A stretch of DNA of 64,000 nt. Origin: Dehalococcoidia bacterium. Lineage in GTDB: Bacteria > Chloroflexota > Dehalococcoidia > Bin125. Shown here in pieces: positions 887-54,858 of the stretch; position 1 is the stretch's first letter; every line of letters begins with the position of its first letter. Where the stretch lies: positions 5,234 through 69,233 of the forward strand of contig JAJEBU010000101.1 of assembly GCA_022822375.1 (NCBI GenBank). Reading direction: 5' to 3'. The notes under the pieces were generated by a model, which had not been told where the DNA came from, searched no databases, and saw only the letters and a list, made by a program, of their open reading frames with translations. The position numbers were made by a program, and so were the translations under genes.

Positions 887-895
887 CGGCCATCG

Positions 896-2824
896 ATGTC
901 GGACTCTGCAAGCATTCCCGATGCTGACATCGCCCGTGCGCTGCAACGCGCCACGGATTGGTTGATCGATCAGCAGGATCCAGCCGGATTCTGGTGGGGC
1001 GAGCTGGAGTCGAACACCTCGATCACCGCTGAGTACCTGTTGTTGACGCACCACCTCGGGATCGCCGACCGGCGCCAATGGGATGGCATCGCGCGCTACT
1101 TGCGCGGTCGGCAGCGTCCCGAGGGCGACTGGGCGCAGTACTCGGATGGTCCAGGCGACGTGTCGACGTCGGTCGAGAGTTACTTTGCGCTCAAGCTGGC
1201 CGGCGACGACCCGGACTCGCCACACATGACGCGGGCGCGAGAGTGGATTTTGGCGCAAGGCGGCATCGTCGAGGCGCGGGTGTTCACGAAGATTTGGCTG
1301 GCGTTGTTCGGCGAGTTCGACTGGGATCGCCTGCCGGCGATGCCACCGTGGATCAATCTGCTGCCGAACTGGCTGCCGATCAATCTGTATGAGTTCGCGA
1401 GTTGGGCGCGGGCGACCATTGTCGGCATCACGGTGATCATGACCTTGCGTCCGACGGCAGCGCTGCCAGCCGGTGCGGGTGTCGGCGAGCTCTGGGTGAA
1501 ACCATCAGATCGACGACGCTTCGCCGTACCGACTCCGAAGAATCTGTTCTCGTCGGCAGGAGCGTTTCTGATCGTCGACAAGCTGCTGCGGTTGCTCGAC
1601 CGCAACCACATTCGGCCATTCGAGAATCGGGCGCTGGCCTTCTCGGAGCGCTGGCTGCTCGACCGACAGGAGGCGGACGGTTGCTGGGGCGGCATTCAAC
1701 CGCCCTGGGTCTACGCGATCCTGGCGCTGCGGGCGATGGGCTACTCGCTGGACCATCCCGTCATCCGACGCGCGCTGGGCGGGTTCGACCGCTTTACCTG
1801 GAAGCGCGACGAGGCGGACGGCGAGCACGTCTGGACGGAGAGTTGCCAATCGCCCGTCTGGGATACGTGCCTGGCGTCTGTCGGGTTGCTGGATGCCGGC
1901 CTCGATCCGCAGCATCCCGCGTTGCAGTCAGCGGCCCGCTGGATGTTGAACGAGCAGGTGCTCGCTGGCGGCGACTGGCAGGTCAAGAATCCGCAGACGC
2001 CGCCGGGCGGCTGGGCGTTCGAGTTTGACAACGATGTCTACCCGGACGTCGACGACACAGCCGTGGTCTTGATGGCGCTCGAACGCATTCCGATGGACGG
2101 CCTGGAGTCGGAGCGGCAGCTGGCATTGGAGCGGGGGCTGCACTGGATGCTCTCGATGCAGTCGTCGAACGGCGGCTGGGGCGCGTTCGACATCGACAAC
2201 GACAAGACGTTTCTGGCGGACATTCCCTTCGCAGACTTCGGAGAGCTGCTCGATCCACCGACGGCCGACGTGACCGCGCACGCTCTGGAGTACATCGGTC
2301 AGCTGGGCTACCGCGGCGAGTATCCGCCGGCCAGCCGCGGGTTGCGCTTCCTCTATGCGCTGCAGGAGCCTGATGGTTCCTGGTGGGGCCGCTGGGGGGT
2401 GAACTATCTCTATGGGTTGGGCGCGGCGCTGCCGGCAATCGAGGCGTTGGGCGAGCCGATGTCGGCCCCGCCGGTCCGGCGAGCAGTCGAGTGGTTGTTC
2501 CGGCACCAGCTCCCCGACGGCGGCTGGGGCGAGTCCTGCAACACCTATCACGATCCGTCGCTGCGCGGTCTGGGGCCGAGTACGCCGTCCCAGACGGCCT
2601 GGGCGCTGATGGCGCTGATCGCCGCCGGGGAAGCGGCGCACGAGTCGGTCGGACGCGGCATTCGCTACCTGATCGATCGGCAGCGCGAGGATGGCACGTG
2701 GGACGAGACGGAGTTCACGGGAACGGGCTTCCCGCGCGACTTCATGATCAACTATCACCTGTATCGGCACTACTTTCCGCTGATGGCGTTGGGACGCTAC
2801 GCGAAGGCGCTGGCGCCGCGCTGA
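896..2824 (+). CDS. shc: Squalene-hopene cyclase
   Basis: 642 aa. The catalytic 'DVDDTAVV' (DxDDTA) motif is present, with multiple QW repeats ('QxxxGxW'-like) and class II terpene cyclase length. It is adjacent to hpnCDE. Confidence 0.95.
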   Translation: MSDSASIPDADIARALQRATDWLIDQQDPAGFWWGELESNTSITAEYLLLTHHLGIADRRQWDGIARYLRGRQRPEGDWAQYSDGPGDVSTSVESYFALKLAGDDPDSPHMTRAREWILAQGGIVEARVFTKIWLALFGEFDWDRLPAMPPWINLLPNWLPINLYEFASWARATIVGITVIMTLRPTAALPAGAGVGELWVKPSDRRRFAVPTPKNLFSSAGAFLIVDKLLRLLDRNHIRPFENRALAFSERWLLDRQEADGCWGGIQPPWVYAILALRAMGYSLDHPVIRRALGGFDRFTWKRDEADGEHVWTESCQSPVWDTCLASVGLLDAGLDPQHPALQSAARWMLNEQVLAGGDWQVKNPQTPPGGWAFEFDNDVYPDVDDTAVVLMALERIPMDGLESERQLALERGLHWMLSMQSSNGGWGAFDIDNDKTFLADIPFADFGELLDPPTADVTAHALEYIGQLGYRGEYPPASRGLRFLYALQEPDGSWWGRWGVNYLYGLGAALPAIEALGEPMSAPPVRRAVEWLFRHQLPDGGWGESCNTYHDPSLRGLGPSTPSQTAWALMALIAAGEAAHESVGRGIRYLIDRQREDGTWDETEFTGTGFPRDFMINYHLYRHYFPLMALGRYAKALAPR

Positions 2825-2915
2825 CCGCTCTGTCGGCGCGATCCGGCGATCCTCGATTCACAACGGCTACCATGTCAGATCAGTCCTACGAACCGACCAG
2901 AGGAGAGGGGGAGTC

Positions 2916-3596
2916 GTGGTGACGACGCCGCAACAGACCGACATTGAGATGCAGCAGCTCCCGCTCACACTCAACCGCGACGGACGTTCGATCGAATTGC
3001 GCCGCCTGGATGAGTCAGATGGCAACAAGCTGATCGAGTTCGGCAGCCGCCAGCCGAGCGAAGATTTGCTCTACGAGGAGCGAGATATCACCAGCGTCGC
3101 CGATGTCGGCGATTGGCTGCACGACACGGAGGCCGGGCGAATCCGCACGGTGATCGCGGAGGAGAACGGCAAGATCATCGGTTACTCGTCGATCGAGCGC
3201 GGGCGTCTGCGCTGGACGCGGCATGTGGCCGAGATTCGCGTCATGGTTGACAAGGATGTGCGACGGCTGGGATTGGGGCACGTGCTCCTGGGCCTGGCGT
3301 TCGAAGCGGCGCTGTCCGACGATGTGGCCAAGATCATTGCGCAAATGACGCCCAACCAGCTCGGCGCGCGCAAGATCTTCGAGCAGTTGGGCTTTGTTGA
3401 GGACGCGGTGCTGACCCGCCACGTCGCATCGGCCGACGGCGAGCTGCATGATCTGATTGTGATGCGCTTCGACACGGCGCAGCGCCTGATCTGCGCGGAG
3501 TGCGGACAGTATGTCCTGACTCTGATCCCGATGCAGGGCAAGCAGCTGTGCTGGTCGTGCTACGAGATGATGGACCTCGAACTGGGCGCGGGTTAG
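2916..3596 (+). CDS. GNAT family N-acetyltransferase with C-terminal CxxC...CxxC zinc-ribbon-like tail
   Basis: GNAT core ('RRLGLGHVLLGLAF') followed by 'ICAECGQ...CWSCYEMM'. A GAGGAGAGGGGGAG ribosome-binding site precedes the GTG start. Confidence 0.6.
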   Translation: MVTTPQQTDIEMQQLPLTLNRDGRSIELRRLDESDGNKLIEFGSRQPSEDLLYEERDITSVADVGDWLHDTEAGRIRTVIAEENGKIIGYSSIERGRLRWTRHVAEIRVMVDKDVRRLGLGHVLLGLAFEAALSDDVAKIIAQMTPNQLGARKIFEQLGFVEDAVLTRHVASADGELHDLIVMRFDTAQRLICAECGQYVLTLIPMQGKQLCWSCYEMMDLELGAG

Positions 3597-3665
3597 CGTC
3601 GCGCGGCTCGTGAACCGTGGACGCTGAGCCACGCCACCGATAAACAGCGATGTGAGGAGAGCGAT

Positions 3666-3905
3666 ATGTCAGAACACCGCGACCACACCTACAAGATCGT
3701 CGAGCTGGTCGGTTCCTCGCCGGACGGGGTGGATCAGGCGATCCGCAACGCGGTCTCGCGCGCGTCGGAGACGCTGAAGAACCTCGATTGGTTCGAAGTG
3801 CGCGAGATTCGCGGGCCGATCCAGGATGGCGAGATCGGCTGGTTCCAGGTCAAGCTGGGCGTGGGATTCCGGATCCTCGACCCATCTGATCTGGCGGACG
3901 ACTAG
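3666..3905 (+). CDS. Dodecin-family flavin-binding protein
   Basis: 79 aa. 'YKIVELVGSS...WFEV.EIRG...DG.I..FQVKL.VGF' matches the dodecin fold consensus. A GAGGAGAG ribosome-binding site is present. Confidence 0.65.
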   Translation: MSEHRDHTYKIVELVGSSPDGVDQAIRNAVSRASETLKNLDWFEVREIRGPIQDGEIGWFQVKLGVGFRILDPSDLADD

Positions 3906-3937
3906 TCAGATCCGCGCGAGCGAAGAACAGCGCGCTG

Positions 3938-4876
3938 ATGATCCGCGGCCCGGACGCCGGCACAGAGTCGAGCGATGCTGCCTTCGATGGCGGGCCAGAC
4001 GAGGCGCTGAGCTGGTGCGAGCGCTACTCGCGCAAGCACGGCGAGAACTTCACGGTCGTCAGCTGGTTCCTGCCGCGCGAGCTGCGGGCACCGATGTTCG
4101 CGGTCTACGCCTTCTGCCGATTCACTGACAACATCGGCGACGATGCGGGCGCGGACCCAGCCGAGCGCTTGGCGCGGCTCGACGCGTGGCAGGCCGATCT
4201 CGAGTGCGCCTTCGACGAGACACCTCCGCAGCACCCGATCAACGTCGCGTTACAGCACGTCGCACGGTCCAAACCGTTGCATGTCGACCCCTTTCGGCGG
4301 CTGATTGAGGCGAACCGGCTGGACCAACGGCAATCGCGCTATGACACGTTCCAGGACGTGTTGGCCTATTGCGATCTGTCGGCCAATCCAGTCGGCGAAA
4401 TGGTGCTGGCGCTGTGGGACGTCGACACGAGCACTGACGAGGGGCGCTATCGGATCGATCTGTCCAACGCGACCTGCACGGCGTTGCAGCTGTCGAATCA
4501 TTGGCAGGATGTGCGCCGCGATTGGCTGGACGCCGGGCGGCTCTATCTGCCGCTGGAGGATCTGCGCGATTTTGACCTCAGCGAGGACGACATCGGTCAA
4601 GGCATCGAGGATCGTCGTTGCCCCGCCGCCTTCCGCGAGATGATGCGCTTCCAGGTTGACCGCGCTGAGGCCTACTTCCGCAAGGGAGAGCGACTGCTGG
4701 ACGAGGTGCCGGATGAGTTAGCAATCGATCTGCGGCTGTTCACGGACGGCGGGCGCGCGGTGCTGCGGGCGATCGAGCAGCAGGACTACGACACGCTGAC
4801 GCGGCGGCCGCGGGTCAGCAAGCAGACGCGCGCCTGGCTGGCGTTGCGCGCCTTCGTGCAACTCAAACTACTCTGA
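3938..4876 (+). CDS. hpnC: Squalene synthase-like protein HpnC (hydroxysqualene synthase)
   Basis: 'YAFCRFTDNIGDD' Asp-rich motif of the squalene/phytoene synthase family. First of two tandem SQS-like genes before hpnE. Confidence 0.85.
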   Translation: MIRGPDAGTESSDAAFDGGPDEALSWCERYSRKHGENFTVVSWFLPRELRAPMFAVYAFCRFTDNIGDDAGADPAERLARLDAWQADLECAFDETPPQHPINVALQHVARSKPLHVDPFRRLIEANRLDQRQSRYDTFQDVLAYCDLSANPVGEMVLALWDVDTSTDEGRYRIDLSNATCTALQLSNHWQDVRRDWLDAGRLYLPLEDLRDFDLSEDDIGQGIEDRRCPAAFREMMRFQVDRAEAYFRKGERLLDEVPDELAIDLRLFTDGGRAVLRAIEQQDYDTLTRRPRVSKQTRAWLALRAFVQLKLL

Positions 4877-4881
4877 TCGCC

Positions 4882-5802
4882 ATGTCGTTCCTGCGCAGCA
4901 CCATGGACCCTGAGATCGCCGAGGCGTATCGCCGCTGCCAGGCGTTCACGCGCGAGCGGGCGACGAACTTCTATGTGGCGTTTTCAGCGCTGCCGCAGCG
5001 CAAGCGGCTCGCGATCTACGCCGCGTACGCCTTTGCGGGAACGGTCGACGACGCCGTTGACGACGCCGGAACGCAGGACGAACGGTCGGCAGCGCTGAGC
5101 ACTGCTCATGGTCTGCTGCGCGCGTCTTACGAGTCGGGCGGCGAGGGGGCAGAGCCCGTCTGGCTCGCCCGCGGCTTGGCCGATGCCGTTCGCAGCTTCG
5201 ACATTCCGCGTGAACACTTCGAGGAGCTCGTGCGCGGGATGGAACAGGACCTGACCACAACGCGCTATCAGACCTGGGACGATCTGGAGCAATACTGCTA
5301 CCGTGCGGCATCCGTGATTGGCCTGGTCTGCATCTGCATCTTCGGCTACGACCGCACGCGCTCAGCAGCCGCCACTCGGACGGCTGTGGCGATGGGCAAG
5401 GCGCTGCAGATCACGAACATCATGCGCGATGTGAAGGAAGACGCGGAGCGTGGGCGGATCTACATCGCCCAGGATGATCTGGCGCGGCACGGTGTGTCGG
5501 AGGGGAACATCCTCGGCGGCGTGTACGATGCTCCGTTTCGGGCGTTGATGGCCGACTACGCGCAGCGGGCGTACGCGCTGTACCGGGAGGGCAGCGATCT
5601 GATTCCGCTGCTCGACGGACCGCGCAGCCGGGCCTGTTGCAATGGGCTGCAAGGCGTGTATCGGATGATTCTGGACGAGATCGTCGCACGCGACTACGAC
5701 GTGCTGAGCCAGCGCGTGTCGCCGTCGCGCTCGGGTCGCGTGCTGCGCCTGCTGGAGCTGTGGCTGCTCGGCGCGCTGCCGAATCTCACGCGAGTCGGCT
5801 GA
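4882..5802 (+). CDS. hpnD: Squalene synthase-like protein HpnD (presqualene diphosphate synthase)
   Basis: 'YAFAGTVDDAVDD' and 'IMRDVKEDAERGRIY' motifs of the SQS/PSY family. Position between hpnC and hpnE. Confidence 0.85.
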   Translation: MSFLRSTMDPEIAEAYRRCQAFTRERATNFYVAFSALPQRKRLAIYAAYAFAGTVDDAVDDAGTQDERSAALSTAHGLLRASYESGGEGAEPVWLARGLADAVRSFDIPREHFEELVRGMEQDLTTTRYQTWDDLEQYCYRAASVIGLVCICIFGYDRTRSAAATRTAVAMGKALQITNIMRDVKEDAERGRIYIAQDDLARHGVSEGNILGGVYDAPFRALMADYAQRAYALYREGSDLIPLLDGPRSRACCNGLQGVYRMILDEIVARDYDVLSQRVSPSRSGRVLRLLELWLLGALPNLTRVG

Positions 5803-5808
5803 CCAGCG

Positions 5809-7206
5809 GTGACGAGCGGCGCGGCCCCGATCGCAGTCATCGGAGGCGGCTTGGCCGGGCTCACGGCCGCGCTTGACCTCGCCGAAGCGGGCAGCCGCGT
5901 GGCCCTCATCGAGCGCCGACCCTTCGTCGGCGGCAAGGCCTACTCCTTCGACGATCCCAACCATCACATTCAGCTGGACAATGGCCAGCACATCACGATG
6001 CGTTGCTGCACGGCGTTCCAGGCATTGCTGGAACGACTCGGCTGCGCCGACATCGTGCGCTACCAGGACGCCCTGTCAGTCGCAGTGATCGATCCAGAAT
6101 CGGCGGGTCGGCAGGTGAGCGTGCTCGCGCGCGCGGAAGTGGGTTGGTTGGGCCGCCTTGGCCCGCGTCTGTTGCCGGCGCCGCTGCATCTGGCGCCGTC
6201 GCTGACGATGTACGACCACCTGAGCACAGTGGAGAAGGCGAGGCTCGCACTGGCGCTGGAGCCGATTCGCCGCATGAGCGAGTCGGACCGCCGCGCGCTC
6301 GACCGGCAATCGTTCGCCGACTTTCTGCTCGCGCACCAGCAGACGCCGCGGGTCATCGAGCGGTTCTGGGACCTGATCGTCCTGCCCACCTGCAACGACC
6401 GCTCGGCCGACGTGTCGGCGGCGCAGGCGATTCAGGTCTTTCAGGAGGGGTTCAGCCGAGAATCGGCGGCGGCGGACATTGGCAACTTCGTTCGCGGCCT
6501 GGGCGAGGTCGCGGAGACCGCGCTGGCGCGTCTGCGCGAACGCGGCGGCGAGGTTCACCTCAACGCCGCTGCGTCGGCGCTCACGGTTGAGGGCAAGTCG
6601 GTGACCGCGCTCCGTTTCGGGCGCGATCAGGAGCTTGAGGTCAGCGGCGTGGTCGTGGCGCTGCCGCCGAAGCAGGCGATGACATTGATTCCCGCGGGCT
6701 GGCGTCGACGCGAGCCGTTCTGGCGGCTGGGGCAGTTTGAGGTGAGTCCGATCGTCAATGTGCACATGCGCTGGGATCGACCCGTGATGCAGCGGGACTT
6801 CGTGGCCGTGCTGGACGACGATGCTCAGTTCATCTTCAACCGATCAAAACTGCACGGCTGGAGCGACGAGCACTGGATCTCCGTCTCGCTGAGCGGCGCC
6901 CACGAGCTGGCGGCTCTGCCGCAGCCGGAGATCGCAGCGCGGGTTGAGCGCGCCGTCCGACGCGCGCTTCGCCGAACGCAGGACGCCGCGCTGCTGGCCT
7001 CGCGGGTGATCAAGGAGTCTGAAGCCACCTTCCGCCCCAAGCCGGGCATGGCGTCGCACCGACTGCGGGCTCGCACGTCGATTGCCAACCTGTTCCTGGC
7101 GGGGGCCTGGACAGCGACCGGTTGGCCGGCCACGATGGAGTCGGCGGTGCGCAGCGGACACGCAGCGGCCGCGGCGGTCCTGGAGCAGGAGCATTCCCAT
7201 GCCTGA
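5809..7206 (+). CDS. hpnE: FAD-dependent amine-oxidase-like hydroxysqualene dehydroxylase HpnE
   Basis: N-terminal 'IAVIGGGLAGLTAALDLAEAG' dinucleotide-binding motif. 465 aa, directly after hpnD. Confidence 0.85.
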   Translation: MTSGAAPIAVIGGGLAGLTAALDLAEAGSRVALIERRPFVGGKAYSFDDPNHHIQLDNGQHITMRCCTAFQALLERLGCADIVRYQDALSVAVIDPESAGRQVSVLARAEVGWLGRLGPRLLPAPLHLAPSLTMYDHLSTVEKARLALALEPIRRMSESDRRALDRQSFADFLLAHQQTPRVIERFWDLIVLPTCNDRSADVSAAQAIQVFQEGFSRESAAADIGNFVRGLGEVAETALARLRERGGEVHLNAAASALTVEGKSVTALRFGRDQELEVSGVVVALPPKQAMTLIPAGWRRREPFWRLGQFEVSPIVNVHMRWDRPVMQRDFVAVLDDDAQFIFNRSKLHGWSDEHWISVSLSGAHELAALPQPEIAARVERAVRRALRRTQDAALLASRVIKESEATFRPKPGMASHRLRARTSIANLFLAGAWTATGWPATMESAVRSGHAAAAAVLEQEHSHA

Positions 7207-13680: not shown

Positions 13681-13769
13681 GCCCACTCCCATTCTGCGCG
13701 TACACTGAATCGTGCGAGACCCGCACATCATCAGGCTAGCGCCACCGAGCGAAATTTCCGATCCGCGAC

Positions 13770-14636
13770 ATGACGAGCTTGGCCGCCAGCACACCGCCCG
13801 TGATCAGGCATCCGATTGAGCCTGAGGCGGCGCCGGCCGTCCAGCTCGAGGGCGCGGGCCTGACCTATGAGTCGAAGGACGGCATTCTGGAAGCGGTCGC
13901 GCCGACCACGTTGAAGATTCGGGCTGGCGAGTTTGTGGCGCTGGTCGGACCGTCCGGCTGCGGCAAGACGACCTTGATGCGGATGATCGCAGGGCTGATC
14001 GCGCCATCGATCGGCACGGCGCAGGTGTTTGGCGACTCGCCGCGCGTCGCACAGCAGCGCAAGCGTCTGGGGCTCGTCTTTCAGGAGCCGGCGTTGCTGG
14101 CCTGGCGCAGCGTCGAGGACAACATCCGTCTGGGCCTGGAGCTGAACCCGCGCGAGACCGATACGGGCATGAATATCGAGGAGCTGATCGAGGTCGTGGG
14201 CCTCACGGGCTTCGGGCGCTATCGGCCGGCGGAGCTGTCGGGCGGGATGCAGCAGCGGGTGGCGCTCGCGCGGGCGCTGGCGATCGATCCGCCGTTGCTG
14301 TTGCTGGACGAGCCGTTTGCGGCATTGGACGAGATCACGCGGGAGCAGATGCGTTACGAGCTGCTTCGCCTGTGGGGGGTCTCGCATAACGCGCAGGAAC
14401 CGCCGCGCTCGGCGATCTTCGTCACGCACTCGGTTGCAGAGGCGGTGGCCATCTCCGATCGAGTGCTGGTCATGTCGCCGCGTCCTGGTCGGATCATCGC
14501 CGATGTGCCGATCACGACGCCGCAGCCGCGCCGTCCCGAGCACGAACATTCAGACCGCTTTATCAACAATTGCGCGATTGTGCGCGCGGCGCTGCGGGCG
14601 CCGACCACACCGGCCGTTCCCCTGGACGCGGCCTGA
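13770..14636 (+). CDS. ABC transporter ATP-binding protein (NitT/TauT nitrate/sulfonate/bicarbonate family)
   Basis: Walker A 'GPSGCGKTT', signature 'LSGGMQQRVALARAL', Walker B 'LLLDEPFAALD'. Confidence 0.85.
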   Translation: MTSLAASTPPVIRHPIEPEAAPAVQLEGAGLTYESKDGILEAVAPTTLKIRAGEFVALVGPSGCGKTTLMRMIAGLIAPSIGTAQVFGDSPRVAQQRKRLGLVFQEPALLAWRSVEDNIRLGLELNPRETDTGMNIEELIEVVGLTGFGRYRPAELSGGMQQRVALARALAIDPPLLLLDEPFAALDEITREQMRYELLRLWGVSHNAQEPPRSAIFVTHSVAEAVAISDRVLVMSPRPGRIIADVPITTPQPRRPEHEHSDRFINNCAIVRAALRAPTTPAVPLDAA

Positions 14637-27461: not shown

Positions 27462-28469
27462 ATGGCTACCCCGCTCCGTCAAACGCTTCAAGTCGGCAAG
27501 TACGTGGTCGGTCAACGACTGCGCCGCACGAAGCGCTATCCGCTGGTGCTGATGCTCGAGCCGTTGCTGCAGTGCAACCTGGAGTGTGCGGGCTGCGGCA
27601 AGATTCAGCATCCCACGGATATCCTGCGCCGACGTCTGACGCCGCAGCAGTGCTGGGACGCGGTCGAGGAGTGCGGCGCGCCGGTCGTTGCGATCGCCGG
27701 CGGCGAGCCGTTGATCCATCAGGACATCGTGGAGATCGCGAACGGCTTCACGGATCGCAAGAAGTTCGTCTATCTCTGCACCAACGCGATCCTGCTGGAG
27801 CGCAAACTGGCGGACTTCGAGCCCAACCCGTACCTCACGTTCTCCGTGCATGTCGACGGCTTCGAGCAGGATCACGACGACTCGGTCTGCCGCGACGGTG
27901 TCTGGGAAGTGGCGATCCGCGCGATTGAAGCAGCGAAGGCGCGCGGCTTCCGCGTGACCACGAACAGCACGTTCTTCCTCGGCGCGCAGCCCGAGCGGAT
28001 TCGGATGATGTTCGACAAGCTGATGGAGATCGGCGTCGATGGGCTGATGATCTCACCGGGCTATCCCTACGAGAAGGCGCCCGACCAGGAGCACTTCCTG
28101 GCCCGCAATCAGACGAAAGAACTGTTCCGCGACATCCTGAATGATCCGCCGAAGCACTGGAGCTTCAACCACTCTGAGCTGTTCCTCGATTTCCTGAAGG
28201 GCGAGATCGAATACGACTGCACACCGTGGGGCAATCCGACGTATACGGTCTTCGGCTGGCAGCGTCCGTGCTACCTCATGGACGAGGGCTACGCGGAGAG
28301 CTTCCAGGAGCTGATCGACGAGACCGAATGGGAGAACTACGGCGTGGCTTCGGGGAATCCCAAGTGCGTGGACTGCATGGTCCACTCGGGCTACGAGGCG
28401 TCGGCGGTGATCGACGCGACGACCAACCTCAAGGCGGGCCTGCGCAGCTTCGCTGGTTCGCTTCGCTAG
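27462..28469 (+). CDS. hpnH: Adenosylhopane synthase, hopanoid-associated radical SAM protein HpnH
   Basis: 'RYPLVLMLEPLLQCNLECAGCGKIQHP' is the HpnH N-terminal radical SAM CxxxCxxC motif in its characteristic context. 335 aa. Confidence 0.9.
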   Translation: MATPLRQTLQVGKYVVGQRLRRTKRYPLVLMLEPLLQCNLECAGCGKIQHPTDILRRRLTPQQCWDAVEECGAPVVAIAGGEPLIHQDIVEIANGFTDRKKFVYLCTNAILLERKLADFEPNPYLTFSVHVDGFEQDHDDSVCRDGVWEVAIRAIEAAKARGFRVTTNSTFFLGAQPERIRMMFDKLMEIGVDGLMISPGYPYEKAPDQEHFLARNQTKELFRDILNDPPKHWSFNHSELFLDFLKGEIEYDCTPWGNPTYTVFGWQRPCYLMDEGYAESFQELIDETEWENYGVASGNPKCVDCMVHSGYEASAVIDATTNLKAGLRSFAGSLR

Positions 28470-28486
28470 TCGTCGCCGACGGGCGT

Positions 28487-29257
28487 TTAGACCAGTCGGA
28501 AGCGCACGCCACCGAGCATGATCGTCGACTGATCCTCCAACACCCGCAGCTCATGGTGGCGGGCGGCTGCGATCACGTGATCGCGGTCGACCACCGATAC
28601 ATCCAGTCCGCCCAGTCCGTCGCCGCGGCCGTCGGCGTCTTCGACGAAGCGCAGCACTGCGTCGTCGAGCTCGATCGTGGGGACACCGCCGTCCGACGAC
28701 ACAGGCCGCTGGACCACCTCTGACCAGCGGGCGGCCATCGCGGCCGGGTCGCTGCTCTGCAGCTCGGCTGCGGTCAACGCTCGGGCGACGTGATCGCGGC
28801 GGGACTCGGTGACATGCTCGTGCGGTCCGGCGGGGTTCCAGGGGCCGTCGGGCGCGTCGCCGCCGCGGTTCCAGCGCAGCTCGGCGATCGCGCCGGGGAC
28901 ATCCTTGGGATGCAGCTGAATGCCGTTGGTCTCGTCGCTCGCGGAGTCGAGCACCACGCGGATGCCGAGCGCCGCGACGTGATTGCGGCGTTCGACGATG
29001 TTGTCGCACTGCATGATGACCATGTAGCCGCCGTCTCCGCCGCGGCGCTGGATGTAGCGTCCGCCGGCGGTGCCGGGCTGGAATGGCGAGACGACTTCGA
29101 GGAATCCGTTGCCGATCGGCATCAGAAAGTTGTGGAGTCCGAAGCGGGCGAGGCCGGGATCACGGTGGCAGACCTCGAGGCCAAAGACACCGCGGAGATG
29201 CGACTCAACGTGGTCGAGGTCCTGCGCGACGAGGCAGATTTGGCGCATCCGCAGCAT
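28487..29257 (-). CDS. VOC (glyoxalase/bleomycin-resistance/dioxygenase) family protein
   Basis: Tandem beta-alpha-beta-beta-beta modules with 'FLMPIGNGFLEVVSP' typical of the glyoxalase-like domain. Confidence 0.55.
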   Translation of the reverse strand: MLRMRQICLVAQDLDHVESHLRGVFGLEVCHRDPGLARFGLHNFLMPIGNGFLEVVSPFQPGTAGGRYIQRRGGDGGYMVIMQCDNIVERRNHVAALGIRVVLDSASDETNGIQLHPKDVPGAIAELRWNRGGDAPDGPWNPAGPHEHVTESRRDHVARALTAAELQSSDPAAMAARWSEVVQRPVSSDGGVPTIELDDAVLRFVEDADGRGDGLGGLDVSVVDRDHVIAAARHHELRVLEDQSTIMLGGVRFRLV

Positions 29258-29272
29258 GTCGGACTCCTTCCG

Positions 29273-30058
29273 CTAGCGGCCGGTGAAGACCGGGCGGCGC
29301 TTCTCGACGAAGGCACGGCGCGCCTCGATCGAGTCTTCCGTCTCACCGACGCGGCGCATACGGTCCGCCTCGCGTCGGACGGCTTCCGAGAGCGGGATGG
29401 TGAAGGCATCGTTGAGGTTGCGCTTGATGCCGGCGATGGCGCCCGGATGCGAGTCTCGCAGCTGGGCGGCAATCTGCAGCACGTTGGGCATCAGTTCTTC
29501 TGGGTCGAAGACGCCGTTGGCCAGACCCAGCTCGCGAGCCTGTTCGGCCTGGACGCGGTCGGGCAGCAGGTACATTTCGCGCGCCTTGCCCATCCCAACG
29601 AGGCGGGGGAGGGTCCATGTGCCGCCGAAATCGCCCGAGAATCCGACCTTGAGGAACGCGGTGTAGAGGTATGCGGTCGTCGACATATAGCGCAGGTCGC
29701 AGGCCAGCGTCAGCGAGCAACCGGCACCGGCGGCACCGCCGTTGATCGCGGCGATCGTCGGTTTGGGCATCTCGTGCAGCAGCACCGAGGCGCGTTCCTG
29801 GTTGGTCAGCGAATAGATGCTCTGCTCCAGGTTGCGGATGTCACCGCGACCGGTGTCTTTGAGGTCTCCACCGGCGCAGAACAGCCGGCCGGCGCCGGTC
29901 AGGATCACGACCCGCACCTCGTCATCGGCGGCGGCCGCCTCAATGGCCAGCGGCAGCTCGTTGAGCAATGTGCCGTTGAGGGCGTTGAGCGACTCAGGCC
30001 GGTTGAGCGTGATCGTGCAGATGCCGTCGTCGATGTCGTAGAGCAGCGTTTCGTACAT
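29273..30058 (-). CDS. Enoyl-CoA hydratase/isomerase (crotonase family)
   Basis: 'VVILTGAGRLFCAGGDLKD' oxyanion-hole motif. Start at 30058 (GAGGAcgcacATG). An upstream start at 30112 is also possible. Confidence 0.8.
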   Translation of the reverse strand: MYETLLYDIDDGICTITLNRPESLNALNGTLLNELPLAIEAAAADDEVRVVILTGAGRLFCAGGDLKDTGRGDIRNLEQSIYSLTNQERASVLLHEMPKPTIAAINGGAAGAGCSLTLACDLRYMSTTAYLYTAFLKVGFSGDFGGTWTLPRLVGMGKAREMYLLPDRVQAEQARELGLANGVFDPEELMPNVLQIAAQLRDSHPGAIAGIKRNLNDAFTIPLSEAVRREADRMRRVGETEDSIEARRAFVEKRRPVFTGR

Positions 30059-30184
30059 GTGCGTCCTCATCGGGCTGGCGATCAGTCTGGTCAGTTCCAG
30101 TGTAGCCAGCATGCCGCTTCGGCATTCGCGCCATAAGCGAACCGCGACGCCGCGTACGACGATCCGCTGGCGTAGACTGAGCCC

Positions 30185-30898
30185 ATGCTCACGATCACAG
30201 CGGCGTTGTCATGGGAGTCGCGCGCGGCGCGGGCCGGCCAAGCGATCGCTGGACGCGGACGCGTGCGATTGATGACCTCAGGCGTCGGCCCGCAGCGAGC
30301 GCGCGATGCGGCAGAAGAGCTGATCGACCGGGGCGAGGCCACGGGGGTGATCAGCATCGGCGTCGCGGGCGGATTGACCAACGATCTGCGCCGACCCTCG
30401 ATCACCGTGCCCGATCAGATCATCCGCCAGTCCGATGGAGCGGTGTTCGAGCCCGACATCGAGCTGCGCAAGCAGACATTTCGCCTGCTGAACCGTTCAG
30501 ACATCCCCTGGCACTCGGTGATCAGTATCACGACGCCGAAGATTCTGTTCACCAAGCGGGAGAAGCGGGACGCAGCAGCGTCAGGCGCGCAGATCGTGCA
30601 GATGGAAGATGCCGAATGGGCCGATGTGTGCTCGGCGGCGGGCGTGCCATTCGCCTCGGTGCGGGTGGTGATGGACGCGCTCGACGACGACATTCCGACG
30701 GAAGTGGTGGGCTGGGGCGGCAATCCGTCGGCGCTGGACATCGCGATGAGCGCGTTTCGGCGTCCGCGTCTGCTGCCGGAGCTCGTCTCGCTCGGTCTGC
30801 AGCGACAGTCGGCGTTGAGCGTGCTGGAACGGGCCATGACGCTGATCATTCCGTCGCTCGCGCCCGCGCGAGCCGACCAAACGGCCGCGGCCGACTAG
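30185..30898 (+). CDS. hpnG: Hopanoid-associated phosphorylase/nucleosidase HpnG (PNP/UDP/MTA phosphorylase family)
   Basis: 'VISIGVAGGL' PNP_UDP_1 motif. About 237 aa, immediately upstream of hpnA and near hpnH. Confidence 0.7.
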   Translation: MLTITAALSWESRAARAGQAIAGRGRVRLMTSGVGPQRARDAAEELIDRGEATGVISIGVAGGLTNDLRRPSITVPDQIIRQSDGAVFEPDIELRKQTFRLLNRSDIPWHSVISITTPKILFTKREKRDAAASGAQIVQMEDAEWADVCSAAGVPFASVRVVMDALDDDIPTEVVGWGGNPSALDIAMSAFRRPRLLPELVSLGLQRQSALSVLERAMTLIIPSLAPARADQTAAAD

Positions 30899-30929
30899 GC
30901 GCGACCGGCCCGACGCCTCCACCAGTCAC

Positions 30930-31931
30930 ATGCGCCGGGTCATGGTCAGCGGAGCGAGCGGATTCATCGGCGCGCACGTCGTCCGATCCGCGTTGGATGC
31001 GGGCGCGGAGGTGCGCGCGCTCGTCCGGCCGCGCAGTGATCTGAGCAACCTGGACGGTCTGCCCATCGAGCTGGTGCACGGCGATCTCACTGACGCGGCG
31101 TCGCTGCGCGACGCGCTCGACGGGATGGACACGCTCTTTCACGTCGCGGCGCGCTATGACCTGAGCCGCCGCGCCCGTCGCGACGCCTTTGCAGCCAACG
31201 TGGATGGCACGCGGGAGCTGATGCTGGCCGCCCTGAGGTCGCAGGTTGACCGAGTCGTGCACACGTCGTCGGTGGCTGCGGTTGGTCCGCCGCTCGATCC
31301 ACAGCGTCCAGCGGATGAATCGCAATGGGCGAGCGCTGACGATGCGCCGGGCCCGTACGAGGCGACGAAGATCATGAGCGAGCGCCTGGTGTTCGGCCTC
31401 GTGCGGTCAGAGGGATTGCCAGCCGTCACGGTCTTGCCGACCGCGCCGATCGGCCCGCTCGATGTCAAGCCCACGCCCACGGGGCGGTTGATTCGTGATG
31501 CGGCACAGGGCGCGATGCCGGCGTACATCGCCTCCGCAGGGCTCAACGTGGTGCACGTCCGCGACGTCGCGGCTGGCCACGTCGCCGCGGCGACGCAGGG
31601 TCGCGTGGGCAAGCGTTACATTCTGGGCCACCGCGAGGGCAATCTGACGCTGCGTCAGATCATCGAGCGCGCCGCTGCCGCCGGCGGCGTGCGGCCGCCT
31701 CGCCTCGCCATGCCTGCGTCCGTCGCGTACCTCGCGGCGGTCGTCGACGAGTACCTGCTCAGCGCCCTCACGCGTCAGCAACCGCGAGCCACCGTCGCCG
31801 GCGTCCGACTGGCCAGGCATCGACATTGGTTCGATCCGAGCAAGGCGATTGCCGAGTTGGCGTTGCCGCAGACGCCTCTGGCTGACGCCTTCGCTGACGC
31901 CGTCAATTGGTTCGATACGCTGGATCGATGA
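30930..31931 (+). CDS. hpnA: Hopanoid-associated NAD-dependent sugar epimerase/dehydratase HpnA
   Basis: 'MVSGASGFIGAHVV', 'YEATKIMSE' (YxxxK) and 'LPTAPIGPLDVKPTPTGRLI' match the HpnA subfamily. Confidence 0.85.
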   Translation: MRRVMVSGASGFIGAHVVRSALDAGAEVRALVRPRSDLSNLDGLPIELVHGDLTDAASLRDALDGMDTLFHVAARYDLSRRARRDAFAANVDGTRELMLAALRSQVDRVVHTSSVAAVGPPLDPQRPADESQWASADDAPGPYEATKIMSERLVFGLVRSEGLPAVTVLPTAPIGPLDVKPTPTGRLIRDAAQGAMPAYIASAGLNVVHVRDVAAGHVAAATQGRVGKRYILGHREGNLTLRQIIERAAAAGGVRPPRLAMPASVAYLAAVVDEYLLSALTRQQPRATVAGVRLARHRHWFDPSKAIAELALPQTPLADAFADAVNWFDTLDR

Positions 31932-32806
31932 CGACTCCAGCAACACGCACCGTCCTCATCACCGGCGCGAACAGCGGCATTGGTCAGGCGGCAGCCACCG
32001 AGTTGGCGCGGCGCGGCTGGCGCGTCTTCGCGACAGCTCGCTCTCCTGAACGGGGCGACATCGCGGTGTCGCAGATTCGGGAGGCTAGCGGATCAAGCGC
32101 GGTCGAACTGCTCGAACTTGACCTCGCATCCTTCGCCTCGGTCAGACGCGCCGCCGACGAGTTCCTGGAGCGCAGCGAACGGCTCGACGCGCTGGTCAAC
32201 AACGCCGGAGTGATCCTCTCCGAACGGACGCTGACGGAAGACGGCCTCGAGTCGACCATGCAGGTCAACCACTTCGGGCACTTCCTGCTGACATCTCTGC
32301 TGTTGCCGACGGTGCTGCAGAGCGCTGAACCTTGCGTGGTCAATGTCAGCAGCATCGTCCACCAACGCGCAGAGCGGATGCCGCTCGATGATCTCTCACT
32401 CGAGCGTCGTTGGGGCGCGATGTATCCCTACGCGGTGAGCAAGCTGGCCAACGTGCTCTTCACCCGCGAGCTGCACAGACGTTATGCGAGCCAGAATCTC
32501 GCCACGTTTGCGGTACATCCGGGCGGTGTCCGCACCGGCTTCGGCCGCGACGGAGACGTTCGCGGGCTGCTTGGCAGATTGATGCCTCTGGCGGGTCCGC
32601 TGATGATGTCGCCAGCGCGCGGCGCGGCGCCGATCGTCGAGCTCGCCGTAGACGCTCGGCATCGCGCTCATTCGGGCTCGTACTTCAGCCGTCACAAGCG
32701 ACAAGATCCCAGCCGTGCCGCACAACGCGATGATGACGCCCGCAGTCTCTGGGAGCGTTCGCTCGAGCTCACGGACGCGTCCTGGCCGGCGGAGTCACCC
32801 GCCTAA
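31928..32806 (+). CDS. Classical short-chain dehydrogenase/reductase (SDR), paralog 1
   Basis: 'VLITGANSGIGQAAA' (TGxxxGxG), 'NNAG' and 'YAVSKLANVLF' (YxxxK). Its ATG overlaps the hpnA stop (ATGA). Confidence 0.85.
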   Translation: MTTPATRTVLITGANSGIGQAAATELARRGWRVFATARSPERGDIAVSQIREASGSSAVELLELDLASFASVRRAADEFLERSERLDALVNNAGVILSERTLTEDGLESTMQVNHFGHFLLTSLLLPTVLQSAEPCVVNVSSIVHQRAERMPLDDLSLERRWGAMYPYAVSKLANVLFTRELHRRYASQNLATFAVHPGGVRTGFGRDGDVRGLLGRLMPLAGPLMMSPARGAAPIVELAVDARHRAHSGSYFSRHKRQDPSRAAQRDDDARSLWERSLELTDASWPAESPA

Positions 32807-32844
32807 TCGCACGACGCGGCCAGCGCGTTCCGTACACTGTCGGC

Positions 32845-33708
32845 ATGACTACATCATCACCACGTACCGTCCTCATCACTGGCGCCACGAGCGGCATCGG
32901 ACAGGCGGCGGCAGCCTCGCTCGCCGAGTCCGGTTGGCGCGTGCTGATCGCCGCCCGCAACCCGCGACGAGCACAGGCAACACTCTCCCAGATTCGCCGC
33001 GAGACCCGCTCGGAGCTGGTCGAATCTGTGTCAATGGACCTCGCCTCCTTCGACTCCGTCCGCGAGGGCGCGGCAGCGGTGCTGGAGCAAGCGCCGAGTC
33101 TGGATGTCTTGATCAACAACGCCGGACTCACCAACAGCGAGCGGCAACTGACGGTTGACGGCCACGAGATGATGATGCAGACGAATCACTTCTCGCACGC
33201 CCTGCTGACTTCGCTGTTGCTGCCGCGGCTGTTGGAGTCGGACGATGCGCGCGTGGTCAACGTGAGCTCGCGGACGTATGAGCAGGCCGGCGACTTTCCG
33301 ATTGACGATCTCAGGTTCGAGCGGCGCTGGGGCGCGTTTTGGCCCTACACGGTGACCAAGCTGGCCAACATCCTGTTCACGAACGAGCTCCACCGCCGCA
33401 CGCACGAGCACGGCTTGGCGGCCTTCTCGGTGCATCCGGGGGTTGTGAACACCAACTTCCAGCAGAACATGCCGATTGGTCTGCGGGTGGCGCTGAAGAT
33501 CGCGCGGCCGCTGCTGAAGACGCCCAAACGCGGCGCGGAACCAGTCGTCGAGCTCGCGGCCAGCGCGGCGCGACGCTCCGACGCCGGCGCGTACTTCGAT
33601 CTGCACAAGCGCGTCGTGCCGCAAGCGCACGCCACTGATCGCGCGGTCGCCGAGCGTCTATGGGAGGCGACCAACGAGATCACCGGCGCCGAATGGCCGT
33701 CGTCATGA
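32845..33708 (+). CDS. Classical short-chain dehydrogenase/reductase (SDR), paralog 2
   Basis: 'VLITGATSGIGQAAA', 'NNAG' and 'YTVTKLANILF'. Colinear and roughly half identical to paralog 1. Confidence 0.85.
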   Translation: MTTSSPRTVLITGATSGIGQAAAASLAESGWRVLIAARNPRRAQATLSQIRRETRSELVESVSMDLASFDSVREGAAAVLEQAPSLDVLINNAGLTNSERQLTVDGHEMMMQTNHFSHALLTSLLLPRLLESDDARVVNVSSRTYEQAGDFPIDDLRFERRWGAFWPYTVTKLANILFTNELHRRTHEHGLAAFSVHPGVVNTNFQQNMPIGLRVALKIARPLLKTPKRGAEPVVELAASAARRSDAGAYFDLHKRVVPQAHATDRAVAERLWEATNEITGAEWPSS

Positions 33709-34202
33709 CGATTGACAGCCGCGACGAGCTGATCACTGCGTTGGAGTCGGACGCCGAGAGCCTTGAGTCGGCCGTGTCGGCATTGCCGGAGGAGGCCTTC
33801 GAGCGGGGCGTGTACGAGCACGGCTGGAACGCTCGGCAGCTGCTCGCGCACATCGCGGCGATCGAGTGGACGTATCCACGCCTGATCGAACGCGCAGAAC
33901 AGCGAACGGCAGGAGACGATGTTCCCCAGGGCGGCGGAGCCGGCTTCGACATGGACGCCTACAACGCCAAGCAGGTCGCGCGACGCGACGATCTGCCTGT
34001 GGAGCAACTGATGACCGAGTTTCGCCGCAACCGCGCGGCCACGATCGATGCGGTGCGGGGCGCGGACGAGGCGTTGCTGGCGCAGGCCACACGTTCAGCG
34101 GGCGGCGTCGAGGGCACGTTGCTGGATGTGTTGATCAGCGTCACCGTCGGGCATGTCCGCGATCATGCAGACGATCTGCTGCGAGGGGCCGGCTCCGACT
34201 GA
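33705..34202 (+). CDS. DinB/YfiT-like (DinB_2) metal-dependent four-helix-bundle protein
   Basis: 'WNARQLLAHIAAIEWTYPRLIE' DinB-like motif. Its ATG overlaps the SDR2 stop (ATGA). Confidence 0.55.
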   Translation: MTIDSRDELITALESDAESLESAVSALPEEAFERGVYEHGWNARQLLAHIAAIEWTYPRLIERAEQRTAGDDVPQGGGAGFDMDAYNAKQVARRDDLPVEQLMTEFRRNRAATIDAVRGADEALLAQATRSAGGVEGTLLDVLISVTVGHVRDHADDLLRGAGSD

Positions 34203-34218: not shown

Positions 34219-35400
34219 CTACTGACGCGGCAGCTGCAAGCCTCGAGTGGCGATGATGTTGCGCTGAATCTCGCTCGTGCCGGCGGCGATGGTGCTGGGC
34301 ACGCTCGACATGTAGGCGCGGCCGATACGGGCGGCGATCGGGGCGCCGGGGTCATCGGGATCGATCCGCTGGCTGTGCAGACCCATCATGTTGACGCCGA
34401 AGCGCGCCACACGCTGGCCGAGCTCGGATCCGAACATCTTCGACATCGAGGCCTCGTGGTTGGGCACCAGCTCCTGCGACTGCATCCAGACGACGCGGTA
34501 GGAGATGAGTCGCGAGATTTCCGACTCGATCATCAGGTTGGCGAGGCCGTTGCGGACGCCGGGGTCGTCGATCATCTTTGCCCCGCCATGGATGCCAGGG
34601 CGTTCGGAGGCGTACTCGGTCATCAGCTCGACGCTCTTGCGGGAGGTGGCGGACCAGGCGACTCCGGAGCGCTCGAAGTCGAGCAGCGTCGCGGCGACGT
34701 ACCAGCCGCGGTTGTACTCGCCCATCATGTTGGCGGCGGGCACGCGCACGTCGGTGAAGTAGACCTCGTTGAAGCCATGCTCGCCGAGCATGTTGATCAG
34801 CGGCCGCACCTCGATGCCCGGCGTGTTCATGTCGAGCAGGAAGTACGAGATGCCGCGATGCTTGGGCGCCTCAGGATCGGTGCGCGTGAGCACGTGAATC
34901 CAGTCGGCGTGATGGGCGCCAGATGTCCAGATCTTCTGACCGTTGATCACGAAGTCGTCACCATCGCGCACGGCGCGAGTCTGCAATCCGGCGAGGTCGG
35001 AGCCGTTGCCCGGCTCCGAGAATCCCTGCGCCCAGTATGACTCGGCGTTGGCGATGCGGGGGAGGTGCTCTTTGCGCTGCTCTTCGGTGCCGTGAAGCAT
35101 CAGACACGGCCCGACCATCGAGATGCCCTGCCCGCCGGAACCGGGAGCGCCGCGATAGGCAGCTTCCTCGCGGTAGATCATTTGTTGGATGTGGCTCGCG
35201 CCGCGTCCGCCGTACTCCTCGGGCCAGGCCATGGTCAGCCAGCCCTTGGAGGCGGCGCGCTTCTCGAAGGCGCGCTCGGCCTCGAACTGGGAGTCGTCGC
35301 CCGGCTCGTTCGAGCCGGCGGCCGGGACCCAGTTGTTGTCGATGAAGTCCACGACCTCACCGCGGAAGGAATCGTCGGCTTCGGTGAATTTGTAGTCCAA
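34219..35400 (-). CDS. Acyl-CoA dehydrogenase
   Basis: 'DYKFTEADDSFRGEVVDF' N-terminus, 'WTSGAHHADW', 'EVYFTDVRVPAANMMGE' and C-terminal 'IAAGTSEIQRNIIA'. TTG start with GGAG ribosome-binding site at 35400. The longer 713-aa ORF is an unlikely extension. Confidence 0.85.
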   Translation of the reverse strand: MDYKFTEADDSFRGEVVDFIDNNWVPAAGSNEPGDDSQFEAERAFEKRAASKGWLTMAWPEEYGGRGASHIQQMIYREEAAYRGAPGSGGQGISMVGPCLMLHGTEEQRKEHLPRIANAESYWAQGFSEPGNGSDLAGLQTRAVRDGDDFVINGQKIWTSGAHHADWIHVLTRTDPEAPKHRGISYFLLDMNTPGIEVRPLINMLGEHGFNEVYFTDVRVPAANMMGEYNRGWYVAATLLDFERSGVAWSATSRKSVELMTEYASERPGIHGGAKMIDDPGVRNGLANLMIESEISRLISYRVVWMQSQELVPNHEASMSKMFGSELGQRVARFGVNMMGLHSQRIDPDDPGAPIAARIGRAYMSSVPSTIAAGTSEIQRNIIATRGLQLPRQ

Positions 35401-35502: not shown

Positions 35503-36690
35503 ATGGACGCGTGGGACGCGGTCGTGATCGGAGCGGGGCCAGCGGGCGCGAACGCAGCGCGGCGACTGGCGGACGGCGGCGCATCGACGCTGCTGCTGGA
35601 GCAGCAGAGACTCCCGCGCTACAAGGCGTGCGGCGGCGGCGTACCGGCGCGCACGCTGCAACTGCTCGGCGACCTCGACATCTCTGCGGTCAGCGAGGGA
35701 CACGTCGACACGATCGACGTGTCCCGCTTTGGACAGCACCAGTTCCGCAAGACATCCGACCGTCTGCTGGCGTGGATGGTGATGCGCGACCGCTTCGATC
35801 AGTTCCTGACCGAGCGAGCGGCGGCTTCTGGTGCGCAGGTGCGGGACGCAACAGCGGTGCAATCGATCGCGCCGGCCGAGTCGTGCTACGAGATCGAGAC
35901 GCCGACGGGCATCGTCCGCGCCCGCCACGTGGTCGCCGCCGACGGCGCGACCGGACCGACGGCGCGCTGGCTCCAGATTCCGTCTGCCAAAACCCGAAGC
36001 GCCGCCTACGAGGTGGAGGTGGCCGCACCACCCCGCGCGCTGGATCACTGGCGCCGCACGGCCAATGTCGATATCGGTTACCGACCATGGGGCTACGGCT
36101 GGGTGTTCCCGAAGGCCGGCGCGTTGTCGATCGGCGTTGTGACCAGTCCCAGGCATGGCCGCGGCATCCGCAAGCACACCGATCGCTACCTGTCGCGCCT
36201 CGGACTCGCCGAGGCGAGCGTGTTGAACGTGCGGGGGCATCCGATTCGTTATCGGCGTTCGACCAACGAGCCGGTCGCCGCCGAGCGGGCGCTGCTGCTC
36301 GGTGACGCCGCGGGGCTGGCCGACGAGTTCACGGCCGAGGGCATTGCGTATGCCGTGCACTCAGCCAACCTCGCCGCCGCGGCGGTGTTGGCTGACGACC
36401 GTCCCGCCGAGAGCTACACGGCGATGGTCGATGGGGAGATTCAGCCGGAACTGAACGCCGCGCGGACGGTGTCGCGGCTCTACTACTGGTGCGTGACGAA
36501 GTGGCCGTGGCTGGCGTTGAGGACATCGAAGCACGTCAACTACCTGTGGCGGGCGTTTTTTCGTGTGATGCGCGGTGAAAGTACGTATCTTGCGGAGTTA
36601 ACACGGTGGATCGGGCCGCGCTTCGCCGGGCGGCTCGGAGCGACGGTCGATGAGCTGGGGAACGAGCGAGATCGACGATGGACGTTCTGA
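35503..36690 (+). CDS. Geranylgeranyl reductase family FAD-dependent oxidoreductase
   Basis: 'WDAVVIGAGPAGANAARRLADGGASTLLLEQ...YKACGGGVP' GGR-family N-terminus. 395 aa. Confidence 0.75.
   Translation: MDAWDAVVIGAGPAGANAARRLADGGASTLLLEQQRLPRYKACGGGVPARTLQLLGDLDISAVSEGHVDTIDVSRFGQHQFRKTSDRLLAWMVMRDRFDQFLTERAAASGAQVRDATAVQSIAPAESCYEIETPTGIVRARHVVAADGATGPTARWLQIPSAKTRSAAYEVEVAAPPRALDHWRRTANVDIGYRPWGYGWVFPKAGALSIGVVTSPRHGRGIRKHTDRYLSRLGLAEASVLNVRGHPIRYRRSTNEPVAAERALLLGDAAGLADEFTAEGIAYAVHSANLAAAAVLADDRPAESYTAMVDGEIQPELNAARTVSRLYYWCVTKWPWLALRTSKHVNYLWRAFFRVMRGESTYLAELTRWIGPRFAGRLGATVDELGNERDRRWTF

Positions 36691-51520: not shown

Positions 51521-54858
<3,338 letters not shown>

Follow-up and report, generated by a model that had tools for sequence, protein, structure and literature searches.

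Short-chain dehydrogenase and DinB-like genes appended to hpnG-hpnA in a Chloroflexota lineage are candidates for hopanoid side-chain maturation

The hopane biomarkers used in geochemistry derive from bacteriohopanepolyols, which are major membrane lipids. The enzyme that converts ribosylhopane to bacteriohopanetetrol (BHT) has been lacking ever since this intermediate was defined (PMC12583986, PMC5462960). A 2025 survey regarded this enzyme as not established, saw no obvious new candidates flanking the alphaproteobacterial hpn clusters and reported hpnA to be missing from 6 of 48 hpnH-positive alphaproteobacterial genomes (PMC12583986), and a 2026 review still leaves the step unassigned, even "nonenzymatic" (PMC13459092). 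Sinninghe Damste et al. suspected HpnA, for which there is also evidence of dispensability for BHT in B. cenocepacia and which is absent from R. palustris (PMC5462960, 2017). These three sources bear out the premise of a sequence-only reading of the DNA described here, namely that the enzyme has not been identified. Since SHC and HpnCDE of Chloroflexi already figure in phylogenomic surveys (PMC7306690), hopanoid genes in Chloroflexota are not new in themselves. What is new in the 64,000-nucleotide stretch studied here (the window; contig JAJEBU010000101.1 of a Dehalococcoidia bacterium) is a known gene cluster with added short-chain dehydrogenase/reductase (SDR) genes and a DinB-like gene, which provide testable candidates for this acknowledged gap.

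The window (G+C content, 66%) contains a full upstream pathway, i.e., shc, hpnCDE, hpnH and an hpnG-like gene. A listing of open reading frames (ORFs) together with Pfam and NCBIfam scans of the window placed the genes of interest as follows.

27462..28469, + strand: hpnH, radical-SAM adenosylhopane synthase (TIGR03470, 516.4 bits, cutoff 225; Radical_SAM and DUF3463)
28487..29257, - strand: glyoxalase-like or methylmalonyl-CoA-epimerase-like gene (Glyoxalase_3, 29.2 bits; TIGR03081, 48 bits, under cutoff)
29273..30112, - strand: enoyl-CoA hydratase/isomerase family gene, between hpnH and hpnG (ECH_1, 202 bits)
30185..30898, + strand: hpnG-like nucleoside phosphorylase/nucleosidase gene (PNP_UDP_1, 72 bits; best NCBIfam match TIGR03468 HpnG, 111.6 bits)
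30930..31931 (alternative start 30942), + strand: hpnA, extended-SDR "hopanoid-associated sugar epimerase" (TIGR03466, 369.3 bits, cutoff 367.65)
31928..32806, + strand: SDR1, classical SDR of predicted NADP(H) type (adh_short, 121 bits; PRK06197, 208.7 bits, under cutoff 268)
32845..33708, + strand: SDR2, SDR1 paralogue (adh_short, 122.7 bits)
33705..34202, + strand: DinB/YfiT-like four-helix-bundle protein gene (DinB_2, 35.1 bits; MDMPI_N, 34.8 bits)

HpnH scored above its curated cutoff, and both of its domains were found. As read from the sequence, the stop codon of hpnA overlaps the start codon of SDR1 in an ATGA (31928-31931), a spacer of 38 nucleotides (nt) separates SDR1 from SDR2, and the stop codon of SDR2 overlaps the DinB start codon in another ATGA (33705-33708). 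The sequence-only reading had described just this arrangement, with hpnH set apart from hpnG and hpnA by two divergent genes (the glyoxalase-like and enoyl-CoA hydratase genes, on the opposite strand), and its layout is correct in every detail. A promoter/terminator scan of 27-36 kb gave a signal at chance level. We tentatively favor, as the most likely reading, that hpnG-hpnA-SDR(-SDR)-dinB is a presumably cotranscribed unit that extends the hopanoid side-chain pathway and is specific to a single clade of uncultured Chloroflexota.

The closest named relatives of SDR1, the DinB-like protein and RpoA belong to Chloroflexota metagenome-assembled genomes, and more distant RpoA matches (~48-50% identity) are labeled Dehalococcoidia. 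Contigs encoding SDR or DinB homologues (51% to 100% identity; the lookup for SDR1 started from a 99%-identical protein) make up the window's own group (L001, L178 and L179) and seven others (L002/L003, L084, L085, L086, L087, L093/L094 and L095). The hpnG-hpnA-SDR-DinB series, with one or two SDRs, occurs in 7/7 of these further groups, always in the order hpnH, glyoxalase-like and enoyl-CoA hydratase genes on the other strand, hpnG, hpnA, SDR(s), DinB and a convergent acyl-CoA dehydrogenase gene. Two SDRs are present in the window group, L093/L094 and L095, and one in the other five groups. The SDR overlaps DinB in every related locus, and the gap between hpnA and the SDR is 18 nt or less in all of them except L085. 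Insertions are found at the borders of the operon (DUF3800 after hpnH in L087 and L095, SDH_protease after DinB in L084-L086, Questin_oxidase in L095 and a 419-amino-acid ORF in L087), never inside hpnG-hpnA-SDR-DinB. This arrangement is more than the chance of a single genome, and the lineage that carries it is deep, since RpoA of the seven groups is only 59-80% identical to that of the window.

All these loci also have ~20 kb of flanking synteny in common, from M28 peptidase, NifU, CO_deh_flav_C and NTP_transf_3 to ACAD, HhH-GPD and SGL and thus including plainly unrelated genes, so that the conservation amounts to about one evolutionary observation, not seven independent ones. With the entire neighborhood syntenic in every related locus, the SDRs and DinB could be unrelated to hopanoids, i.e., ordinary oxidoreductase or detoxification genes beside hpnA that are held there by inherited gene order, much like the neighboring enoyl-CoA hydratase, glyoxalase-like and acyl-CoA dehydrogenase genes. 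Such an explanation, which we consider somewhat unlikely, would also accommodate the abundance of classical SDRs, among the commonest bacterial genes and with relatives of 30-48% identity in many unrelated contexts and taxa, the frequency of ATGA overlaps in compact high-GC genomes and the absence of the linkage outside the lineage. It is harder to reconcile with the shared strand and the start/stop coupling to hpnA, or with insertions that fall at the operon borders and none inside.

The history of the SDR genes bears on the same alternative. Upon addition of outgroups, 13/13 hpn-linked SDRs fell into one clade of a neighbor-joining (NJ) tree, which is indicative only as it carries no bootstrap support. 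The nearest neighbor of this clade, P0120, lies outside it (54% identity to SDR1) and is encoded in a non-hopanoid context; a monophyletic hpn-linked group with its sister paralogue located elsewhere argues against mere inherited gene order. The P0120 locus (L176:6987-9855) carries three SDR genes, a cyclase and MFS transporters, and the family has non-hopanoid members in what is presumably the same phylum. In an NJ tree of the SDRs, the sole copies of L002 and L084 cluster with SDR1, those of L086 and L087 cluster with SDR2, as does the DinB-proximal copy (position 2) of L095, and both SDRs of L093/L094 cluster together. Some of the 120 best database matches are closer to SDR1 and others to SDR2. 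Identity of 53% between SDR1 and SDR2, together with these old sub-clades, indicates that the SDR gene was duplicated long ago, perhaps more than once, and that copies were later lost differentially. The second SDR had been called paralogous to the first, which holds for a paralogue at this identity but not for a recent tandem copy, a scenario that we rejected on the same grounds.

Both SDRs are classical members of the adh_short family, with TGxxxGIG, NNAG and the Asn-Ser-Tyr-Lys tetrad. Across 14 sequences including SDR1 and SDR2, T12-G13...G17-I18-G19, N91-N92-A93-G94, N114, S142, Y168 and K172 are conserved, nearly all of them invariantly. A basic residue right after β-strand 2 marks NADP(H) preference in classical SDRs; R38, invariant at this position, corresponds in the alignment to an Arg found both in 3rd5 and in LPOR, which depends on NADPH, and both SDRs are therefore predicted to use NADP(H). 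The AlphaFold2 (AF2) model of SDR1 (pLDDT, 86.6) is closest to LPOR, the uncharacterized mycobacterial 3rd5 and the human and porcine carbonyl reductases (CBR1), all of them NADP(H) carbonyl or C=C reductases with bulky hydrophobic substrates. PRK06197 is the nearest NCBIfam family, and both proteins stay under its cutoff (SDR1, 208.7 bits; SDR2, 207.1 bits; cutoff, 268). Identity with LPOR itself was rejected: scores for TIGR01289 (101 bits for SDR1 and 94 bits for SDR2) are far under the cutoff of 331, and the N-terminal part alone matches. The motifs would fit an aldehyde reduction, a step for which HpnA is a rival.

HpnA passes its family cutoff by a small margin, and its extended-SDR motifs (GxxGxxG, S113, Y143 and K147) do not vary among the HpnA sequences of Chloroflexota and proteobacteria. 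Its nearest solved structure is 3wj7 (244 bits), presumably Gluconobacter oxydans Gox2253, which is reported to reduce medium-chain aldehydes with NADPH (Yin 2014). HpnA, or else unspecific or housekeeping reductases, might thus reduce ribosylhopane, leaving the SDR(s) and DinB to alter the side chain in some other, lineage-specific way. They might, for instance, oxidize or epimerize a hydroxyl to give a BHT stereoisomer, oxidize the lactol to the lactone ribonylhopane or prepare a position for DinB-type conjugation. This division of labor appears rather unlikely to us. It draws on the many unrelated loci in which hpnA adjoins hpnG, hpnH or shc, on the published suspicion of HpnA for this step (PMC5462960), on the closeness to 3wj7, on a number of redox enzymes in the module above the requirement of one reduction and on the fact that DinB-fold enzymes are usually thiol transferases, isomerases or hydrolases. 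On the other hand, hpnA is reportedly dispensable for BHT in B. cenocepacia and absent in R. palustris (PMC5462960), is missing in some hpnH-positive alphaproteobacteria (PMC12583986), and these Chloroflexota have no known unusual hopanoid to be explained.

The protein encoded upstream of HpnA scores under the HpnG cutoff (111.6 versus 187.1 bits), with TIGR03468 still its best-scoring family. Its assignment as hpnG rests on genomic position, and removal of adenine from adenosylhopane is its presumed function. Identity among relatives is 40-74% for this protein, 82-94% for HpnH and 89-94% for the neighboring acyl-CoA dehydrogenase, i.e., the HpnG-like protein evolves much faster than either. 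In L093, hpnG (5240-6038) is split into short ORFs, and the near-identical L094 has an intact gene of 264 amino acids; the break is probably an indel of a long-read assembly and not a true pseudogene.

Membership of the last gene product in the DinB/YfiT superfamily is supported by its DinB_2 score (35.1 bits; cutoff, 24.8), the fold and a His triad. H49, H150 and H154, a putative metal-binding triad, are invariant in 23 homologues. The AF2 model (pLDDT, 91.5) is nearest to the four-helix bundles of MDMPI (N domain), YfiT, ClbS and MST (2nsf, 1rxq, 7mtl and 8f5v), and the sequence has no match among solved PDB structures. To our knowledge, no known DinB-family enzyme acts on hopanoids. The subfamily is narrow, with 345 database matches, and its gene directly follows an hpn-linked SDR in every locus examined, which again speaks against genes kept in place by inherited order.

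The sequence-only reading had proposed to examine whether orthologues of the SDRs co-occur with hpnG/hpnH across hopanoid producers, with their absence from most BHT producers counting against the proposal. At the level of gene clusters, the outcome goes against it. A contig scan of metagenomes with an HpnA alignment (Chloroflexota plus Proteobacteria) yielded a broad sample of 80 HpnA-like loci (606 kb), of which 32 contain one or more additional hpn genes; in 21 of these 32, the sequence continues for at least 1 kb downstream of hpnA. Relatives of SDR1/2 or DinB (E≤1e-5) were found at 0/32. By the same threshold, such relatives are present in 0/5 hopanoid clusters of PLSDB (Mycetohabitans, Azospirillum, Streptomyces, B. 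cenocepacia and Cupriavidus), each viewed with flanks of 15-20 kb except where the record end truncates the Streptomyces locus. In that database, the SDR family tops at 45% identity, in hopanoid producers and nonproducers alike (e.g., Deinococcus and haloarchaea). When the SDR alignment was used to scan GTDB genomes, generic motifs (NNAG, NHF) dominated the matches and all close relatives were missed, so that the scan serves as a negative control only. Among the matches listed, shc, hpnH, hpnG, hpnA and DinB lie near 0/80 distant SDR loci (≤48% identity, many phyla). The SDR and DinB genes are thus no part of the core hopanoid gene set and, with the link absent outside the lineage, the SDRs can at most be a lineage-specific, not a universal, ribosylhopane reductase.

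In the reading that we favor, HpnH would attach a 5'-deoxyadenosyl unit to diploptene, and the HpnG-like enzyme would strip adenine to leave (phospho)ribosylhopane. The NADPH-type classical SDR(s) would then act on the C35 side chain. The likeliest reaction would reduce the C-35 aldehyde of ribosylhopane in its open-chain form to a primary alcohol and so yield BHT, and HpnA and the DinB-like putative metalloprotein would perform an associated redox or tailoring step. Conversion of ribosylhopane to BHT in cell-free extracts is said to have been found NADPH dependent by Bodlenner in 2015. We see it as evenly balanced whether the hopanoid side chain is a target of the SDRs in any way, and the specific reaction, an NADPH-dependent aldehyde reduction from ribosylhopane to BHT with substrate and direction as presumed here, as improbable.

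A number of observations weigh against our preferred reading. The HpnG-like protein falls under its family cutoff; the flanking synteny takes in unrelated genes; SDR1/2 and DinB relatives are missing from the metagenomic and PLSDB hopanoid loci surveyed; and HpnA, itself a reductase-type enzyme, is far more widely linked to hpnG/hpnH. Moreover, one aldehyde reduction would not need as many as three NAD(P) enzymes along with a putative metalloprotein. Such a surplus (HpnA and one or two SDRs) suggests more than one simple reduction, and tailoring instead of, or besides, BHT formation. The nomination of the SDRs as ribosylhopane-reductase candidates in the sequence-only reading thus stands in part. 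It is favored by co-orientation and start/stop coupling with hpnA and DinB in an operon conserved across a diverse Chloroflexota lineage, by a clade of their own with intact catalytic and NADP(H)-type motifs and by the unassigned step in the literature. It is weakened by the lack of hpn linkage outside the lineage and by HpnA as a rival for the step. The SDRs are plausible, testable, lineage-specific candidates, not a demonstrated or general solution.

The upstream part of the pathway is encoded in a first hopanoid block (59-7206, from polyprenyl synthase to hpnE; shc..hpnE span 896..7206, + strand) ~20 kb upstream, which makes the block described above the second one, as had been claimed.

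896-2824, + strand: shc (TIGR01507, 775 bits, over cutoff)
2916-3596, + strand: GNAT-type acetyltransferase gene between shc and hpnC (weak ArsN1-like match)
3938-4876, + strand: hpnC (TIGR03464, 289 bits, over cutoff)
4882-5802, + strand: hpnD (best match TIGR03465, 240 bits, under cutoff 278.6)
5809-7206, + strand: hpnE (TIGR03467, 374 bits, over cutoff)

No further hopanoid genes (hpnN, hpnI-K, hpnO or hpnP/R) were found in the 20 kb between the blocks or in the 28 kb downstream. The interval between the blocks includes coenzyme F420 genes (12254-13794, - strand), i.e., cofE for the F420-0:glutamate ligase and npdG for an NADPH-dependent F420 reductase. Genes for CoA-ester metabolism are interleaved with the hopanoid genes: the glyoxalase-like and enoyl-CoA hydratase genes (28487-30112, - strand) and the acyl-CoA dehydrogenase gene (34219-35400, - strand) bracket the operon in every related genome. 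The glyoxalase-like gene, conserved at this location throughout the related loci, probably does not belong to the module, and the true start of the enoyl-CoA hydratase likely gives a protein of 261 amino acids (29273-30058), the length called in L001 and L002. A 448-amino-acid ORF at 28790-30136 (+ strand) was rejected as a gene, having no family match and running antisense to these two well-supported genes. Just past the convergent acyl-CoA dehydrogenase gene, 35503-36690 (+ strand) encodes a geranylgeranyl-reductase-family flavoprotein (TIGR02032, 206 bits), which may act as an isoprenoid reductase; most related loci retain this gene, but it is degraded or absent in L085 and L086. Genes of S-adenosylmethionine (SAM)-cycle housekeeping, for methylthioadenosine phosphorylase (49620-50507, + strand) and SAM synthetase (53677-54858, + strand), lie within 25 kb or so of hpnH, a nearness that may be coincidental.

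A parallel to the SDR pair exists in hopanoid clusters of another type. Seven metagenomic loci (L107, L109, L118, L121, L124, L136 and L172) carry two tandem genes for Zn-dependent medium-chain alcohol dehydrogenases directly after hpnA-hpnG and before hpnC-D-E. The two proteins are ~30% identical to each other, and their genes overlap by 4 nt in L172 (9813-11977). This matches the "ug1/ug2" genes of Acidobacteria clusters, where ug2 is described as a Zn-binding alcohol dehydrogenase (PMC5462960), and the published arrangement is the sole basis for calling these contigs Acidobacteria type. That enzymes of another oxidoreductase superfamily, likewise paired, take up this place in the operon raises the plausibility of a dedicated redox step following HpnG and is a further point against regarding the SDRs as chance neighbors of hpnA. 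By analogy, it suggests that this step may be filled non-orthologously. A broader proposal, which strikes us as quite unlikely, holds that there is no single "BHT synthase" gene. Instead, hpn operons would have incorporated NAD(P)H oxidoreductases that are not orthologous and differ from lineage to lineage, and these would perform the post-HpnG step: the SDR pair with its DinB-like partner in this Chloroflexota clade, the two tandem Zn-dependent alcohol dehydrogenases in clusters of the Acidobacteria type and, elsewhere, HpnA or housekeeping reductases.

The clonable set of SDR1, SDR2, DinB and HpnA, along with the dehydrogenase pair of culturable Acidobacteria, makes the gap after HpnG directly testable. 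If the SDRs do make a lineage-specific variant of the side chain, it could become a biomarker for an abundant uncultured group of Chloroflexota.

Set against known enzymes, SDR1/2 find their best family and structure matches in the retinol-dehydrogenase/WWOX/LPOR-like SDRs (PRK06197; TIGR01289), with which they share an NADPH-type cofactor site and the N-S-Y-K tetrad and whose substrates are bulky and hydrophobic. They match LPOR well over the N-terminal 130 residues only, and their closest solved relative, 3rd5, is uncharacterized. HpnA and 3wj7 resemble SDR1/SDR2 as NAD(P)-dependent Rossmann reductases, HpnA being encoded in the same operon, but HpnA is of the extended type and not a classical SDR, and it is widespread in hpn clusters whereas SDR1/SDR2 are confined to this Chloroflexota lineage. 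The DinB-like protein has the four-helix-bundle fold and conserved His triad of its superfamily (MDMPI N domain, bacillithiol/mycothiol S-transferases and ClbS), from which it differs in the lack of a sequence match to any solved member, the narrowness of its subfamily and its location downstream of an hpn-linked SDR.

At the level of gene clusters, the Acidobacteria-type loci are similar in having two tandem, stop/start-overlapped genes for NAD(P)-dependent dehydrogenases just downstream of hpnA/hpnG, and dissimilar in that these are Zn-dependent medium-chain enzymes (ADH_N plus ADH_zinc_N) instead of short-chain ones, in the order hpnA-hpnG and in being devoid of DinB. With the canonical clusters (hpnA-H of Zymomonas and those of Burkholderia, Mycetohabitans and Streptomyces), the window shares shc, hpnC/D/E, hpnH, an hpnG-type gene and hpnA, which adjoins hpnG or hpnH here as in many of them. 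Unlike those clusters, that of the window is split into two blocks 20 kb apart and has no hpnB, hpnI-K, hpnN or hpnO. What sets this lineage apart is that hpnA is followed by a classical SDR gene, or two of them, and then by a DinB-like gene, an arrangement seen in 0/37 other hopanoid loci examined.

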